Shown here: piece by piece, positions 11,451-48,800 of the stretch | How the letters are laid out: each line of letters starts with the position of its first letter | Position numbering within the stretch: position 1 is the first letter of the stretch | The notes under the pieces: model-generated | What the model was told of the DNA's origin: nothing | What the model saw: only the letters and a program-made list of their open reading frames with translations | The model's database searches: none | Program-made: the position numbers and the translations under genes | NCBI GenBank assembly: GCA_036511855.1 | Contig: DATCBN010000015.1 | Span: 1,566 to 65,565 of the forward strand | Origin: Candidatus Eremiobacteraceae bacterium | Lineage (GTDB): Bacteria > Vulcanimicrobiota > Vulcanimicrobiia > Eremiobacterales > Eremiobacteraceae | Reading direction: 5' to 3' | DNA: 64,000 nt

Positions 11451-13619
11451 GTGCATCAAGCAACGGAGTTCATGGCGCGCGCGACGACACAAGACCGGCA
11501 GGCATCCGGCTCGCCGCTCGTCCAGCCGCTTCGCGAGCTGGCCGGCATAACGCCGGCGACGGCGGCTCTTTTCGAACGCATGGGAGTCGTGACCGTCGAC
11601 GACCTCATCCGTCACTATCCCTACCGGTACGACGATTTGCGTGAGGTGACGGCCATCGCCGGCCTGCGCAGCCTCGGTCCGGATCAAGTCGGCGAGCAGA
11701 ATGTCTGCGGCGTCATCCGGCAGTCCAAGCACGTGCGTCTTCGCGGGCGCGTCCGGTCGAAGACGAGCGCCGTGATCGACGACGGCACCGGACTTCTCGA
11801 AGCGACGTGGTTCGGACGCCCATATCTTGGCGCGCAGCTCAAAGCCGGCATGAAGATATTCGTCCGCGGTCGCGTCGAGGCGACGCTGACGGGAGCGCGC
11901 ATGGCGGTCGTACAGCATCGCGTCGTTCACGCCGAAGAAGCATTCGCGGGCGAGCTCGTCCCCGTTTATCCACAGACCGCCGGTTTGCGCAACTCTGTCA
12001 TCCGGCGGTTGGTGACAAGAGAGTTAGCGCGCGTTCTCGCCGACCCGCTCGCGGCGGACGAATTGGACCCGCTGCCTGCGCGCGTGAATGCCGCGCACAA
12101 GTTCAAGGACGCGCGCTTTGCTCTGCGCGCCATCCACGCACCGTCGTCTCCGGAAGAGGCCGCGGAAGCGCGCCGGAGGCTGGTCTTCGAAGAGTTCTTC
12201 CTGCTCGCAGCGCAAGCGGCGCTGCGGCGAGCGGCGCGCGCGAGCGAACGATCGCCGGATTTCGCCGCCGCGATGACGCCCAAAAAGCTGTCGCGGCTTG
12301 CGGCCGACCTCGACGCGTTTTTTCCATTCGCGTTGACGTCCGCGCAGCGGCGGTGCATCGCCGAACTGACGGAAGATATGTTGCGGCCGGCGCCTATGAA
12401 TCGGTTGCTCCAAGGTGATGTCGGATCGGGCAAGACAGCGGTGGCCGCCGCCGCGATTTTGCTTGCGGCGCGCGCGGGTTTTCAATCGGCGTTCATGGCC
12501 CCGACGGAGATCCTCGCGCTGCAGCACTTCCACAAGCTCAGCGCGCCGCTGCGGGCGGCAGGCGTCGAGAGCGCGCTGCTCGTCGGCGGCTTGAAGAAAC
12601 ACACTCGAGACGATCTTCTCGCACGGTTGCGCGGGCGGGAGATCGACCTCGTCGTCGGCACGCATGCGCTCTTGACCGATGACGTGGAATTCGGCGCGCT
12701 CGGACTCACCGTCATCGACGAGCAGCACCGCTTCGGCGTGCTGCAGCGCGCGGAATTGCGCTCGAAGGCCCGTGGCTACACGCCGCACACGCTGATCATG
12801 ACGGCGACTCCGATCCCGCGCACGCTCGCGCAGTCGCTCTACGCCGACCTTGACTTGAGCGTTGTCGACGAGCTGCCGCCAGGACGCACCGCGGTGAAGA
12901 CCTACGTCCGCGAAGCGGCGGACACGACGAAGATATTCGACTTTGTGAGAAAGCAAGTGGCGCTCGGCCGGCAGGCGTACATCGTCTGCCCGGCGATCGA
13001 CGACTCGGAACGAGCGCTGCATTCGGCCGTCGAACAAGCCGAGTCGCTGCGCAACGGCGATCTCAAGGGCTTGCGGGTCGCGCTCTTGCACGGCAAGATG
13101 ACCGGCAAGCAGAAAGACGAGATCATGCGCTTGCTCGGCGACGGATTCATCCAGGTGCTCATCTCGACGACGGTGGTGGAAGTCGGCGTCGATGTGCCGA
13201 ACGCTTCGGTGATGGTGGTCCTCGACGCCGACTACTACGGGTTGGCCCAGCTCCATCAACTGCGCGGGCGGGTCGGCCGCGGCGCCGCCAAATCGTATTG
13301 CATACTTGTGGCGTCCGAACGCGGCGAATCCGACTCGGCCCGGCTTGGCATTCTCGCGGCGACGAACGACGGCTTCGCCATCGCCGAAGAAGACTATCGC
13401 CTGCGCGGGAGCGGGGATGTCGCCGGCACCAGGCAACACGGCGCGCAAGAGTTCCGGCTTGCCAACCTTATCAGGGATCTGCCGGTCTTCGAACAAGCGA
13501 AGAAGGAGGCGGACGCTCTCGTGGCAGCCGATGCCGGCCTGGAAAAGCCAGAAAACGCAGGGCTCAAACGCGTCATCGACAGTCGCGAACGAACCCGCGG
13601 CCTGCGCTTCACGTCGTAA
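11451..13619 (+). CDS. recG: ATP-dependent DNA helicase RecG
   Basis: Wedge-domain region, helicase motif I 'GDVGSGKT', DEAH-type 'VIDEQHRFG', 'MTATPIPRT', motif VI 'QLRGRVGRG'. Start is GTG 11451 or ATG 11472. Confidence 0.9.
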   Translation: MHQATEFMARATTQDRQASGSPLVQPLRELAGITPATAALFERMGVVTVDDLIRHYPYRYDDLREVTAIAGLRSLGPDQVGEQNVCGVIRQSKHVRLRGRVRSKTSAVIDDGTGLLEATWFGRPYLGAQLKAGMKIFVRGRVEATLTGARMAVVQHRVVHAEEAFAGELVPVYPQTAGLRNSVIRRLVTRELARVLADPLAADELDPLPARVNAAHKFKDARFALRAIHAPSSPEEAAEARRRLVFEEFFLLAAQAALRRAARASERSPDFAAAMTPKKLSRLAADLDAFFPFALTSAQRRCIAELTEDMLRPAPMNRLLQGDVGSGKTAVAAAAILLAARAGFQSAFMAPTEILALQHFHKLSAPLRAAGVESALLVGGLKKHTRDDLLARLRGREIDLVVGTHALLTDDVEFGALGLTVIDEQHRFGVLQRAELRSKARGYTPHTLIMTATPIPRTLAQSLYADLDLSVVDELPPGRTAVKTYVREAADTTKIFDFVRKQVALGRQAYIVCPAIDDSERALHSAVEQAESLRNGDLKGLRVALLHGKMTGKQKDEIMRLLGDGFIQVLISTTVVEVGVDVPNASVMVVLDADYYGLAQLHQLRGRVGRGAAKSYCILVASERGESDSARLGILAATNDGFAIAEEDYRLRGSGDVAGTRQHGAQEFRLANLIRDLPVFEQAKKEADALVAADAGLEKPENAGLKRVIDSRERTRGLRFTS

Positions 13620-13620
13620 A

Positions 13621-14289
13621 ATGAACCCGGCGCCGGGCCGTCCAACTAAGGTCTCCATGCGTTTATCAGGCGGCGCCAAAGCGCGCCGGCCACTGCTCGC
13701 GCCGAAGGGCGTGCGGACGCGGCCGACGTCGGCGAAAGTTCGTGAAGCGCTCTTCGCGGTTTTGGGCAAGCGGATCGAAGAGGCGCGCGTGCTCGACCTC
13801 TTCGCCGGATCCGGCGCGCTCGGCCTTGAGGCGATGTCGCGCGGAGCGGGTTCCGTGGTCTTCGTCGACAACGACGCGGACGCGGTCATGGCAGTGCGGC
13901 GCAACGCCGTCCGCGTCATCGAAGAGAAAGATCGCTTCCGCATCATGCCGATGCTCGCCATACGCGCTCTGCGGGTGCTTCGCGGCACGTTCGACATCGT
14001 CTTAGTCGACCCGCCGTACGATCGCGGAGCGCGCGAAGAACTCGCCACGCTCATGCAACGCGGTCTGGTCGCGACCGACGGCGTCGTCGTCGTCGAACAC
14101 CGCACGGGCGAGGACGCGCCGCTGCCTGAATCGCTTAAGGTGCTCAAGTCGGCGAAATACGGCGACACCACGCTGACCTTCGCCGCCGTGCGGCCGGCGC
14201 GCGAATCATTGCCGGAGGATCGCGCGGCGGAAAGCGTGCTCGCCACGAAATCGCGCCAACCCGCGCGCCGCGAGAAGAGCCGCCGTTGA
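13621..14289 (+). CDS. rsmD: 16S rRNA (guanine966-N2)-methyltransferase RsmD
   Basis: 'RPTSAKVREALFAVLG', 'VLDLFAGSGALGLEAMSRGA', 'DIVLVDPPY'. ATG 13621 lies 1 nt after the recG stop (alternative ATG 13657). The track ORF start at 13306 overlaps recG. Confidence 0.85.
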   Translation: MNPAPGRPTKVSMRLSGGAKARRPLLAPKGVRTRPTSAKVREALFAVLGKRIEEARVLDLFAGSGALGLEAMSRGAGSVVFVDNDADAVMAVRRNAVRVIEEKDRFRIMPMLAIRALRVLRGTFDIVLVDPPYDRGAREELATLMQRGLVATDGVVVVEHRTGEDAPLPESLKVLKSAKYGDTTLTFAAVRPARESLPEDRAAESVLATKSRQPARREKSRR

Positions 14290-14849
14290 AACCCGTACTA
14301 GGGCAAGCCGTACTAGGGCAAGCAACGCTTGCCCAACCGGACGCCCAGCCGGACGCCCAACCCGGTGGCCTCGTCGTCTACCCCGGCAGCTTCGACCCGA
14401 TGACAAACGGCCATCTCGACGTCGCGCGCCGGGCGGCCCGGAATTTCTCGCGATTGGTGGTCGCCGTCGTCTCCAACCCGAACAAACGCCCGATGTTCGC
14501 GCTAGCCGAACGTGTGGAAATGCTGCGCGAGGCCTGCGCCGACCTCGCTAACGTCGAAGTCGACGCCTTCGACGGCTTGCTTGTGGAGTACGTCAGGCGC
14601 CGGGGCGCGAGCTTGATCGTAAAGGGTCTGCGGATCGTCGCGGATTTCGAGGGCGAATTCACCATGGCGCTCCTCAATCGCAAATTGGCAGGTCACGTCG
14701 ACACGATGTTTCTGCCGGCCAGCGTCGAATATGCCTATGTGTCGTCGTCGAGTGTCCGCGAGATCTTCGCGCTGGGCGGCGATGTCTCGGAATTCGTGCC
14801 GCCATCGGTGCTGCGCGCCATGGCCCGTCTGCGGGGGAAGGTCTCATGA
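14286..14849 (+). CDS. coaD: phosphopantetheine adenylyltransferase CoaD with REP-derived N-terminal extension
   Basis: 'VYPGSFDPMTNGHLDV' (T/HxGH) and 'ISSTLVRE-like SSSVREI' motifs. The only in-frame ATG/GTG/TTG upstream of the GSFDP motif is TTG 14286, which overlaps the rsmD stop as TTGA. Confidence 0.85.
   Translation: MKPVLGQAVLGQATLAQPDAQPDAQPGGLVVYPGSFDPMTNGHLDVARRAARNFSRLVVAVVSNPNKRPMFALAERVEMLREACADLANVEVDAFDGLLVEYVRRRGASLIVKGLRIVADFEGEFTMALLNRKLAGHVDTMFLPASVEYAYVSSSSVREIFALGGDVSEFVPPSVLRAMARLRGKVS
14295..14334. repeat. REP-like element: partial copy plus full hairpin GGGCAAGC-AAC-GCTTGCCC
   Basis: GTACTAGGGCAAGC (14295-14308) is duplicated as CGTACTAGGGCAAGCAACGCTTGCCC (14309-34), followed by the tandem CCGGACGCCCA(G/A) x2 at 14337-14360. 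Confidence 0.85.
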
Positions 14850-15334
14850 GCGTTTATCGCGTGATCGACAAGATGGAAGCCGGCGTCAAAGGCGGCGTTT
14901 GGCTGCCGTTCGGCTATCGCGTCATCGGGTGCGATCAGATGCTAGACCTTATCGAGAAACTGCGATCGAGTCTACCCGAAGAGGTCAGCACTGCCAAAGC
15001 CGTCACCAAAGAGAAAGACCGGCTGCTCTCACAGGCGAAAGAAGATGCGGATAAGATCCGCGCCGACGCCACGTTCGAGAAGACAAAGGCGCTCTCCGAC
15101 GCGGAGCTCGTCCGCCAAGCTCAGTCAAGTGCGGACGCCATCGTCGCAGAAGCCGAGACGCGCGCGCGCGAGATCAGGCGTGGCGCCGATGAATACGCCG
15201 ATCAGCTTCTCGCCGGGCTCGATGCCACGTTGAGCAATGCACGCGGCGCGGTCCAGAAGGGGCGTCAGACGTTGGCCGATGGCCTGACAAGCGCGGCCAA
15301 CGGGCGCGTTCGCACAAGAGAGCGCCAAGAATAA
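14846..15334 (+). CDS. hypothetical coiled-coil protein
   Basis: ATGA overlap with coaD. Ala/Glu/Lys-rich helical middle part. Conserved position between coaD and the PDZ/Lon-like gene. No family recognised. Confidence 0.6.
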   Translation: MSVYRVIDKMEAGVKGGVWLPFGYRVIGCDQMLDLIEKLRSSLPEEVSTAKAVTKEKDRLLSQAKEDADKIRADATFEKTKALSDAELVRQAQSSADAIVAEAETRAREIRRGADEYADQLLAGLDATLSNARGAVQKGRQTLADGLTSAANGRVRTRERQE

Positions 15335-16836: not shown

Positions 16837-16861
16837 TTTAATCATCTCAATTACTGTAATA

Positions 16862-16911
16862 GGGCAAGCACCGCTTGCCCAAAACCGGATGCGGGCAAGC
16901 GTAGCTTGCCC
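16862..16911. repeat. REP-like hairpin pair in inverted orientation
   Basis: GGGCAAGC-ACC-GCTTGCCC (16862-80, head GTAATA on the left) and GGGCAAGC-GTA-GCTTGCCC (16893-911, TAATAC on the right). Confidence 0.85.
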
Positions 16912-16934
16912 TAATACACGATAGGAAGCCAATA

Positions 16935-22912: not shown

Positions 22913-22944
22913 TAGGTCCCGTTCCGTAGGGGAATCTCGTACGA

Positions 22945-23067
22945 GGGCAAGCATCGCTTGCCCCGTTTTTGTTTCAACGCACGTACTAGGGCAAGCATCG
23001 CTTGCCCCGTCGTTCTGTAGGAGGGTGAGCAACGCTCACCCATTTTTTGGGCAAGCGATGCTTGCCC
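22945..23067. repeat. cluster of four REP-like hairpins (three forward, one reverse; one compensatory variant)
   Basis: GGGCAAGC-ATC-GCTTGCCC at 22945-63 and 22989-23007. GGGTGAGC-AAC-GCTCACCC at 23023-41. GGGCAAGC-GAT-GCTTGCCC at 23049-67. Confidence 0.9.
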
Positions 23068-23098
23068 TAGTTCGATTGCCCTCCTACAATAACGGCCC

Positions 23099-45831: not shown

Positions 45832-48800
45832 TTACGAGCACCCCATGCTTCTTCCACACGAATCGCAGACGTAGCACGCTCCGTTGCGCCGGGTCAGCGA
45901 TCCGCACCCGTCGCACACCGGAGCGTCGCCCATCATCGAGGCCAACTGCGCCTCGCGCGAGCGAAGAGCGTTTAGTTGGGCCGCGGCCGATGGGTCGATC
46001 GGAGTCGCCGGTGATTGGGCAAGCGATGCTTGCCCTAGTACGGGTTTGGATTGGGCAAGCGATGCGTGCCCTAGTACGGGTTTGGACGAACTACTCGAAC
46101 CTGTTTGTGCGGACGGCGACAACGCGCGGCGCGCGATGACCTTCGCCGATTCCTCCGAAGCTTGCTGCTCGGCGACCATCGTCTCGAATTCGGAGAGCGC
46201 GTGGTCCTCGTGGTGGGTGTCGTCGACGTCTTTGTCTTCAGGTTTGACCTGAACGAAGTCGGTCCGTCCGAGATACTCCATACCGAGCACGCGGAAGATG
46301 TAGTCGATGACGCTCGTGCACGATTTGATGTTCGGGTGATCGACGAAGCCGTTGGGCTCGAACCGTGTGAAAGTGAACTTCTCGACGAATTCTTCCAGCG
46401 GCACGCCATACTGCATTCCGATCGAAACGGCGATCGCGAAGCAGTTCATGAGACTGCGGAACGATGCGCCTTCTTTGTGCAGATCGACGAATATCTCGCC
46501 TAAGGTGCCATCGCCGTATTCACCGGTGCGCAAGAAGACGGTGTGCCCCGCGATTTTCGCCTTCTGCGTCCAGCCGCGCCGTTTTGCCGGCAGCCGGTTG
46601 CGTTCGAGCACTTGCGCGACTTTGCGTTTGAAGTCGGTGTTGTCGGTGTTGGCGAGGATGCGTTGCGCGGCCGCGAGGATTTCGTCCGGCCGCAGTTCAT
46701 CGGCCGCGGACTGACGCGCCGCGGCGAGGCGGTCTTCGAACTCTTTGGACAACGCCAGCTGACGATCTTCGGCGGACTCGCTCGATTTGTCGGAGCCCTT
46801 GGTGGAGAGCGGCTGCGATAGCTTGGATCCGTCTCGATACAGCGCGATAGCCTTTAGCCCGAGGTCCCAGGAGCGCATGTACGCCTCTTGGATGTCTTGG
46901 ACGGTGGCTTCCATCGGCATGTTGATGGTCTTGGAGATGGCGCCTGAGATGAACGGCTGCGCGGCAGCCATCATGCGCACGTGACCCATGTGCTGGATAT
47001 AGCGGCGGCCGATCTTGCCGCACTTATTCGCGCAATCGAACGCGGCGTAGTGCTCTTCTTTGAGATGCGGTGCGCCTTCCACGGTCATCGTGCCGCAGAT
47101 ATAGTTGTTGGCGGCGTCCACCTCGTCGCGCGAGAAGCCGAGCAATCGCAAGAGGTCGAAGTCCGTCGCGCTGTATTGTTCGGGAGTGAAGCCCAGCCGC
47201 TGAAGCGTGGCCTCGCCAAGGCTCCATTGATTGAAGCCGAAGCCGATCTCGAACACCGCCGGCAAGCTGCGCTCGATGGCTTGGATGTCTTGGTCGTTGA
47301 AGCCGCGCGCGCGCAACGTTTCGACATTGATGTACGGCGAGCCGTACAGCGTGCCCGCGCCTTTGGCGTAGCGGATGATGTCGTCGATCTGCGCCGGCGC
47401 GTAGCCGAAGTTTCGCAACGCCACCGGAATGGATTGGTTGATGATCTTGAAGTAGCCGCCGCCTGAGAGCTTTTTGAACTTCACGAGCGCGAAGTCGGGC
47501 TCGATGCCGGTGGTGTCGCAATCCATCTGAAGGCCGATTGTTCCAGTAGGTGCAATGCATGTGGCCTGCGCGTTGCGATAGCCATGTTCTTCGCCAAGTT
47601 CGAGCGCCCGATCCCACGCTGCCCGCGCAGCGGCTAGCAGATACGGCGGGCACAACGTCTGGTCGATGCCCATCGGAACGACAGACACTTCTTCGTATTC
47701 CGCACCCGGTGCGTTGTATGCCGCGCGACGATGATTGCGCATGACGCGCAGCATGTCGTCGGAATTTTCTCTATAACGCGAAAACGGCCCAAGTTCGCCG
47801 GCCATTTCGGCCGACGCAGCATACGACTCACCCGTCAAGATTGCAGAGATCGCTCCAGATATCGCGAGCGCTCGAGGAGAATCGTACGGAATACCGGCGA
47901 CCATAAGCATCGTGCCGAGATTCGCATAGCCAAGACCGAGAGTGCGATACTCGTACGACTTTCGTGCGATGGATTGACTTGGAAAGTGCGCCATGAGCAC
48001 GGAGATCTCGAGCACCATCGTCCACAGCCGGATGGCATGACGATACGCTTCTACGTCGACGGTGTTCTTTTCGGCGTCGAAGAACTTCATCAAGTTTATA
48101 CTTGCCAAGTTGCAAGCTGTGTCGTCCAAGAACACGTACTCGGAGCAGTTGTGCACGATCAAGCCGTTGGCGACGAAATGGTGCGTGTCGGATTCGGTGA
48201 GATCGAAGACGGGCTCGAGCCCCAGGGCCTCAATTGTGTCGACTTCATCGACCAACGGTTCGGCGTACGTCGCCACATCGCGATTGATCGCGGCGAGCGC
48301 ATCGGCCTTTGCGGTTACCGGATCGAAGCCAATGTGCTGTTCGAATAATACGCGCGACGCACGGCTGACCCGCAGCGAATGCATCTCTTTCACTGGATAT
48401 GTGCGCATCCCGCCGCGGCCATCCGGCAACGCGGCTTCGAGCTTGCCATTGCGACGGCCGGAATAGATCTTCGCTTTGATGCCGAAGGAGAGCAGAAGTA
48501 GTTGAACCTGCTGGAGCAGTTCGAGCGATGTTGAATCGAGCGCCACATATTGGCTCTTGTCGCCGTAGTTGGCAACCGTGCCATCGGCGGAGAACAGGCC
48601 GCGAAGCACGAGACCGACGGATGCGCGGTCGAGTTCGTACACCGAGTCGGTGAATCGTTTCTGGTGGCTGCCCTGGTCGAGCACAGCGTATCGTTTGAAG
48701 ACGTCGACCACAGGTTGCGAGCCGAACGACAGCCGGGAAGTACTGGAGGTGTACGACGTGACCTGGACTTCGTCGTTTCGTCCGACGGAGCCGATGGCTT

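Follow-up and report, generated by a model that had tools for sequence, protein, structure and literature searches.

An in-frame palindromic repeat at the probable 5' end of coaD in an uncultured member of "Candidatus Eremiobacterota"

Repetitive extragenic palindromes (REPs), including intragenic copies and copies at the N-terminal ends of reading frames, have been documented, and many of the N-terminal cases are misannotated; degenerate tags and two extra bases have also been described for some families with the GTAG tag (PMC3733652). As quoted in the same survey, elements of the RPE-1 family are carried at the N-terminal ends of proteins with expression in vivo (PMC3733652). Here, we describe a REP at the junction of the genes rsmD and coaD in a 64-kb stretch of DNA from an uncultured bacterium of the phylum "Ca. 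Eremiobacterota" (contig DATCBN010000015.1; the whole analysed stretch is referred to below as the window). In the ENA assembly ERZ27294320, the window lies on a contig of 245 kb. In this stretch, the element probably forms the translated 5' end of coaD, which encodes phosphopantetheine adenylyltransferase. Among other palindromic repeats of this kind, Rickettsia palindromic elements (RPEs) are ~100–150 bp long and encode 30–50 residues, and in the REPIN/RAYT system REP doublets are mobilised by REP-associated tyrosine transposases (RAYTs). Searching the literature on repeats of Eremiobacterota brought up no relevant paper.

The rsmD–coaD junction of the window

A scan of the open reading frames (ORFs) showed that TTG 14286 is the first ATG, GTG, or TTG codon past the upstream in-frame stop and that no other canonical start precedes the motif Y32-P-G-S-F-D-P. 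This agrees with an earlier note on this DNA, which had named the codon as the only candidate and had placed it over the stop of rsmD (TGA, 14287–14289). The 27 codons from the TTG to L29 (codons 2–28), which had been counted as 25 before, read KPVLGQAVLGQATLAQPDAQPDAQPGG and consist of a partial REP copy, a full REP copy, and a 12-nt tandem repeat (Table 1). The CAA at 14335–14337, just 3' of the full copy, encodes Q. Both Tandem Repeats Finder (TRF) and repeat finding detected the partial and full copies as a 15-nt tandem of 2.1 copies at 14293–14323, and the previously noted 12-nt units CCGGACGCCCAG/CCGGACGCCCAA were confirmed at 14337–14360, within the longer 12-nt tandem. The hairpin of the full copy (14316–14334) has an 8-bp stem, a 3-nt loop, and a free energy of -13.2 kcal/mol (z = -4.1). 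Measured from the TTG, it lies at +31 to +49, which fits the distance of about 30–50 nt given before. Overlaps of 4 nt occur along the operon (rsmD/coaD, coaD/next gene, and PDZ-Lon_C gene/yceD), and termination-reinitiation at TTGA, in line with this pattern of tight coupling, may be proposed for the start of coaD.

The identity of CoaD was established by Pfam PF01467 in its homologs, by the nucleotidyltransferase fold, and by the presence of the (Y/C)PG(S/T)FDP and TxGH motifs. The named homologs belong to "Ca. Eremiobacterota." Past its 5' end, the gene of the window is intact and 91% identical to P0001. The fold starts with L29-V-V-Y-P-G-S-F-D-P (14370–14399), and residues 1–28 form the REP-derived tail; the sequence across the boundary of tail and core includes ...AQPGGLVVYPGSFDPMTNGHLDVAR. 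Residues Y32, P33, G34, F36, D37, and P38 are invariant, and translation must therefore start upstream of 14379. All 34 solved CoaD sequences from PDB align only from residue 29/30 (best E=9e-50), and native solved CoaDs begin 2–5 residues ahead of the motif. In the AlphaFold2 model, which was built with 37 homologs, the predicted local distance difference test (pLDDT) values were 58, 48, and 66 for residues 1–10, 11–20, and 21–30, compared with >90 over the core. No secondary structure was modelled before residue 29, and the first strand was E29–34. According to this model, the REP is predicted to add a disordered N-terminal tail to a CoaD that is ordinary in other respects.

Conservation of the reading frame in related strains

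REP-bearing junction DNA of relatives was obtained from gene calls (L081, L083, and L101) and, in the case of L093 and L094, by scanning metagenome contigs for a DNA pattern irrespective of frame; one more junction (L098) came from a locus whose gene caller had started CoaD at an internal ATG and ignored the REP. Together with the window, these loci gave seven REP-bearing alleles at the DNA level. The phase of the hairpin was identical in all seven (GGG CAA GCN NCG CTT GCC, phase 0), and the frame-blind alleles L093, L094, and L098 were in frame as well. In the six alleles with a visible junction, the distances from the overlap start to the Tyr codon were 93, 84, 72, 87, 75, and 117 nt, all of them multiples of three (in ascending order, 24, 25, 28, 29, 31, and 39 codons). 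From the hairpin end to the Tyr codon, the seven alleles measured 44, 32, 26, 35, 20, 32, and 20 nt; each of these distances equals 2 mod 3, and frame +1 contained one to three stops in each of them. For a further homolog (P0256), a length of 132 nt (44 codons) counted from the overlap start follows from the gene coordinates, by way of the gap between the rsmD end and the ATG. An xTGA or TGATG overlap of the coaD start with the rsmD stop was kept wherever the junction was visible, with or without a REP. Comparative DNA thus supports the earlier claim of a translated coaD 5' end made of REP sequence, with seven alleles in phase and six junctions in multiples of three.

At the protein level, nine further alleles carried an N-terminal GQA[STP]LAQ peptide; they fell into two clusters of ≥90% identity. 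REP-less alleles occurred inside the same clusters (LTEHPLVVYPG, LNPGLVVYPG, and VTVVVYPG); P0249 and L103 are examples of alleles without the REP. Among very close strains, with CoaD sequences at least 90% identical, the number of REP copies was 0, 1, 1.5, 2 (P0261), or 3 (L101, with a 30-nt period). The outgroups P0003, P0004, and P0005 (82–89% identical) had no REP and showed a 10-residue leader and a GTGA or TGATG overlap start. The comparison of junctions in relatives that had been proposed for this locus therefore showed the overlap start to be kept, the REP to be in phase, and the outgroups to be free of it. Across the phylum, CoaD leaders vary from 3 to 30 residues, and the REP is absent in the rest of the phylum. 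Only the coaD start codon and 0–10 leader codons lie upstream of the REP. The overlap start is the sole canonical one in the window, L081, L083, and L098. A REP at the same site was found in independent assemblies from at least eight samples and three sources. A search of genome contigs with CoaD was uninformative for the junction, since among the matches listed only relatives of ≤57% identity from other phyla were present.

Several observations on annotation and on the structure of the junction accompany these results. Public CoaD calls at an internal ATG (P0250/L098, 1153–1698, and P0256) give proteins of 149 aa without the YPGSFDP strand; the DNA of L098 (P0250) is open in frame from its GTGA overlap start through the REP. 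In some relatives (L094), the coaD frame is open far upstream through rsmD, and because of this, choosing the first possible start codon past a stop yields misleadingly long CoaD ORFs there. In the window, a 6-nt direct repeat AACCCG (14290–14295 and 14359–14364) brackets the whole block of REP and tandem. Deletion between its copies would give TTG AAA CCC GGT GGC CTC (LKPGGLVV), which is very near the REP-less allele L103 (TTG AAT CCC GGA CTC, LNPGLVV). The direct repeat could be a target-site duplication or a deletion substrate.

Such a pattern of phase and length is indicative of purifying selection on a translated segment, and it would not be expected of an untranslated region (UTR). The frame is kept across the element in these alleles, as it should be for an in-frame insertion. 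Based on these comparative data, we estimate the probability that the REP is translated in the organism of the window at about 0.85, with initiation presumably at TTG 14286. Several points weigh against this interpretation. The Shine-Dalgarno-like sequence 5' of TTG 14286 is weak (GAGAAGAG) and lies within the rsmD coding sequence. L094 alone has a canonical start 3' of the REP, namely a GTG that is in frame and precedes the Tyr by two codons, and a short form of CoaD is possible in that strain. Several alleles were obtained via gene calls, which favour open frames, and the strictly frame-blind set comprises three to four; the alleles also share ancestry and are not independent, so the statistics are indicative and not rigorous. 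Finally, most N-terminal REPs annotated in Pseudomonas, Citrobacter, and Stenotrophomonas have been argued to be extragenic (PMC3733652).

If the REP is translated, the following scenario may be proposed. A lineage-specific REP would sit a few codons past a coaD start that overlaps the rsmD stop. As coaD is essential and its canonical starts lie upstream of the REP, only frame-keeping, stop-free variants would persist. TTG 14286 would be the start of translation, most likely coupled to rsmD through termination-reinitiation at TTGA, and the ribosome would unwind the hairpin (+31 to +49) and read through it. This would yield a normal phosphopantetheine adenylyltransferase with a disordered N-terminal tail of 28 residues, and this tail is probably a tolerated passenger, presumably neutral, and not a functional domain. 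The repeat varies in steps of 12, 15, 30, 36, or 42 nt; in coaD, where the units measure 12, 15, and 30 nt, slippage or unequal recombination among the copies may make the tail change fast. The element itself may originally have been spread by a RAYT-type transposase acting in trans.

The same data bear on the other possible explanations of the junction. The REP could be an untranslated intercistronic or 5'-UTR element, with CoaD starting at a non-canonical codon between the hairpin and YPGSFDP and having a short N-terminus. That is the usual account of REPs annotated at N-termini (PMC3733652), it would fit the short leaders of canonical CoaDs, 2–5 residues before the motif, and some public gene calls leave the REP out (P0250 and P0256). 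However, codons 14335–14378 contain no ATG, GTG, TTG, CTG, ATT, ATC, or ATA, so the CTG or other non-canonical start near GSFDP that the earlier note had suggested looking for was not found there. The sole near-cognate codon is an ACG in the hairpin loop, and no start-like codon is conserved in this interval across alleles (CTC GTC GTC, CTC GCG GTC). Since the motif is invariant and the window has no near-cognate start from hairpin to motif, translation must begin 5' of the REP. An untranslated REP would also leave the conservation of frame and phase and the multiple-of-three lengths unexplained, and we regard this explanation as quite unlikely. It is even less probable that the REP has damaged coaD, either through a start at ATG 14400 (M39), which would give an inactive truncation, or by leaving a pseudogene with another enzyme in its place. 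Two database gene calls do begin at the ATG equivalent to M39 (149 aa), but the invariant LVVYPGSFDP strand is encoded upstream of ATG 14400 and is conserved at the protein level in all alleles. Moreover, the rest of coaD is intact and retains its 91% identity to P0001, and the 149-aa call of L098 is an artefact, as its frame is open from the GTGA overlap start.

A role of the hairpin as a co-opted regulator is compatible with the translation of the REP. It might act on rsmD termination, coaD reinitiation, or rsmD mRNA stability, and its copy number might set the CoaD dosage. REPs near stop codons are reported to affect translation and mRNA stability in E. coli. At this locus, a stable hairpin follows the rsmD stop at 12–27 nt and lies at +31 relative to the coaD start, and close strains differ in copy number, with 0 to 3 copies. 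On the other hand, other alleles place the hairpin 3–18 nt from the candidate start and the overall range is 3 to 33 nt, REP-less alleles coexist within the same clade, and the whole junction folds no better than shuffles (z = -1.0), with no sign of start-codon sequestration. A promoter/terminator scan of 13400–15000 gave no signal at the junction. A regulatory role is thus possible but unsupported, and we consider it unlikely. Two more specific proposals were rejected: the hairpin is not an intrinsic terminator, as it has no U-tract, and it is not required at ≥+28 from the start, given its distance of 3–18 nt in other alleles. A misjoin at the repeat, although short repeats can confuse short-read assemblers, has a negligible probability, since the REP occupies the same site in the independent assemblies mentioned above.

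The REP family in the window and its other coding copies

Copies of the REP are dispersed over the window and also occur in relatives. Each unit consists of an unpaired tag GTAnnA, an 8-bp stem GGGCAAGC/GCTTGCCC, and a 3-nt loop A[ACT]C; the tag variants were GTACTA, GTACGA, GTAGGA, GTAATA, and GTATTA. The GTAG tag was present in ~4 of 17 copies, the others having GTAC, GTAA, or GTAT, and two extra bases precede the stem. The pattern GTACTAGGGCAAGC with ≤2 mismatches had 11 matches in the 64 kb, vs 0.07 expected, and the hairpin GGGCAAGCNNNGCTTGCCC had 10 matches at five loci, vs 0.05 expected. The free energies of the hairpins ranged from -13 to -15 kcal/mol. Thus, the dispersed REP family is real. 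Three of the five loci are intergenic, each with inverted pairs (Table 1). In the four-unit cluster, the stem of the unit at 23023–23041 is GGGTGAGC/GCTCACCC, whereas the standard units around it have GGGCAAGC/GCTTGCCC; two positions are altered on both arms and pairing is retained, and the variant may represent either a subfamily or a sign of selection on the hairpin. No RAYT or other transposase was found among the identified genes flanking the REP loci of the window, and none was seen in the fetched loci of relatives; a crude regular expression for the RAYT motif was also negative, which is not a real test.

Besides coaD, the window contains a second coding locus in nrdJ, where the REP units have the same orientation and phase as in coaD. 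The closest relative (P0126/L095) has one hairpin at the same site and in the same phase, and seven other nrdJ genes of Eremiobacterota (P0121–P0125, P0127, and P0133) have an unrelated variable linker without a REP. Since both copies in nrdJ are followed by the conserved Cys-rich tail, there is, judging from the sequence, no doubt about the translation of the REP in this gene. The length of the predicted protein, 1522 aa, is explained by an intein with a LAGLIDADG homing-endonuclease domain: Intein_splicing (residues 414–751) and LAGLIDADG_3 (598–691) were detected by Pfam within the barrel domain of the ribonucleotide reductase.

Exhaustive searching with the REP peptide of nrdJ identified a 401-aa ArsP_1 permease (P0241) in the window's own assembly. 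Its array of ~126 residues, in which each REP peptide is followed by a 5-residue spacer, splits the ArsP_1 profile, and its REPs have the orientation and phase of those in coaD and nrdJ. Because the peptide search is specific to one frame, the permease shows recurrence and not frame preference. The remaining six matches of this search were unrelated low-complexity repeats. When a chimeric query with the REP peptide in the four stop-free frames was compared with the protein database, 28 word-sharing candidates were obtained, none of them with E≤10.

The earlier note had also held that coaD and nrdJ share one frame of the element and that one of the other frames reads TAG within CTAGGG. The orientation and phase do match and the TAG was found, but the coincidence is not significant by itself: four of the six combinations of orientation and phase are free of stops, and the chance that the two unbiased cases share a frame is p ~0.25. 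The shared frame is not yet evidence of anything beyond stop-codon filtering. We nevertheless put forward, as a doubtful proposal, that the REP is "coding-competent." One orientation and phase would encode a harmless flexible peptide, VLGQA-S/T/P-LAQ, so that the element would repeatedly settle, and expand as arrays with multiple-of-three periods, in essential or housekeeping genes at sites that encode disordered tails or linkers (the coaD N-terminus, the nrdJ linker, and a permease loop). The frame preference would then be selected or strongly filtered and not a matter of chance survival, and the copy number in coaD might also tune the coupling with rsmD. If this were true, fast strain-level length variation would arise in CoaD, NrdJ, and the permease.

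Two observations concern the genes next to the REP of coaD. A 162-aa ORF (14846–15334, +) directly follows coaD with an ATGA overlap; a Pfam search with it gave no match, and those loci of relatives that fully cover the downstream gene also contain it, with its length and 4-nt overlap unchanged. RsmD has a basic tail of ~35 residues past its Pfam domain (...SRQPARREKSRR), encoded by the 3' end of rsmD (14185–14289).

Table 1. Positions of the REP copies and of the genes that carry or adjoin them; positions refer to the window unless another contig is named
Feature	Position	Strand	Basis or remarks
rsmD, 16S rRNA m2G966 methyltransferase family, 210 aa	13657..14289	+	Pfam PF03602, E=3.7e-44, residues 1–175; gene call in L092
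TTG, probable coaD start codon	14286..14288	+	Overlaps the rsmD stop as TTGA
coaD ORF, phosphopantetheine adenylyltransferase, 187 aa	14286..14849	+	Homologs, PDB alignments, AlphaFold2
Partial REP copy AACCCGTACTAGGGCAAGC, made up of the 5' flank, the tag, and the 5' arm of the stem	14290..14308	+	Read K P V L G Q A; 15-nt tandem, pattern matches
Full REP copy: tag CGTACTA and hairpin GGGCAAGC-AAC-GCTTGCCC	14309..14334	+	Read V L G Q A T L A
Tandem of a 12-nt unit (2.7 copies), beginning within the 3' stem arm	14331..14362	+	Read AQPD AQPD AQP; TRF and repeat finding
Inverted REP pair, REPIN-like, intergenic between yceD and rpmF	16856..16917		Folds at -40.4 kcal/mol (16850–16922)
REP cluster, four units, intergenic between convergent rimM and alpha/beta hydrolase genes	22939..23073		One unit with a compensatory stem variant
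nrdJ, class II ribonucleotide reductase, 1522 aa	45832..50400	-	Intein with LAGLIDADG domain
Two tandem 36-nt REP units in nrdJ	46013..46086	-	In the variable linker that follows the TSCPD domain and precedes the Cys-rich tail at the C-terminus
Inverted REP pair, intergenic between two tandem class-III aminotransferase genes	63531..63597		Genes on the minus strand
REP array of the permease gene, nine tandem units, 42-nt period	L096 3493–3847 (contig k141_657033, ERZ27294320)		Central region of the gene

Comparison with described repeat families

The probably translated in-frame palindrome belongs to a known class and implies no new mechanism, and it is unusually well supported here. Among its closest counterparts are the intragenic GTAG/CGTC-tagged REPs (Di Nocera, De Gregorio, and Rocco, 2013, BMC Genomics, PMC3733652), with which it shares a stem in the range of 6–9 bp, a small loop, and an unpaired 5' GTA tag. 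Those REPs are likewise mostly intergenic inverted dimers, and a minority of them lie wholly in ORFs, where units, dimers, or clusters encode roughly 10–80 residues; N-terminal cases, insertions in flexible linkers, and target genes of nucleotide metabolism or repair are also common to both. In contrast, the tag described here is GTAN+NA rather than a fixed GTAG, and Eremiobacterota are outside the coverage of that survey. The permease array, with nine units and 126 residues, exceeds the 43–82 residues of the surveyed clusters. In addition, most N-terminal cases of the survey were suspected to be misannotated, whereas for coaD there is no downstream start in the window and the evidence on the frame comes from the population level.

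The RPEs of Rickettsia (Ogata et al., 2000, cited in PMC3733652 and PMC3184786) are similar in being selfish palindromes inserted in frame in genes that stay functional. They differ in the CGTC tag and in size, the unit here being 25–36 nt. The REPIN/RAYT system resembles the present family in that the intergenic copies of the window are inverted doublets that fold into long hairpins and in its GTA-type tag; unlike in that system, neither the window nor the fetched loci showed a RAYT gene, and the coding copies are direct tandems or singletons. The BRE, RUP, and enterobacterial MITEs (miniature transposable elements with inverted repeats) reviewed by Delihas (2011, PMC3184786) also provide repeat-derived extensions of coding 5' ends, but they are MITE-like, with terminal inverted repeats and a length of 70–300 bp.

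Against this background, the new features are the phylum, the lack of an alternative start in an essential gene, the maintenance of the frame at the population level, and the unusually large in-frame arrays. For annotation, it is relevant that the public CoaD starts disagree within the clade and that some of them, at the internal ATG, would delete the catalytic motif. The coaD copy is probably one of the clearer examples of an essential enzyme whose N-terminal REP needs to be translated; earlier surveys only suspected such cases and often dismissed them. The strain-level variation in copy number, which obeys the triplet rule, may be regarded as a natural readout of selection on the reading frame. 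Taken together with the described systems, these results would add a soil bacterium of an uncultured phylum to Rickettsia, Opitutus, and the other genera in which selfish palindromes are known to occur in frame.

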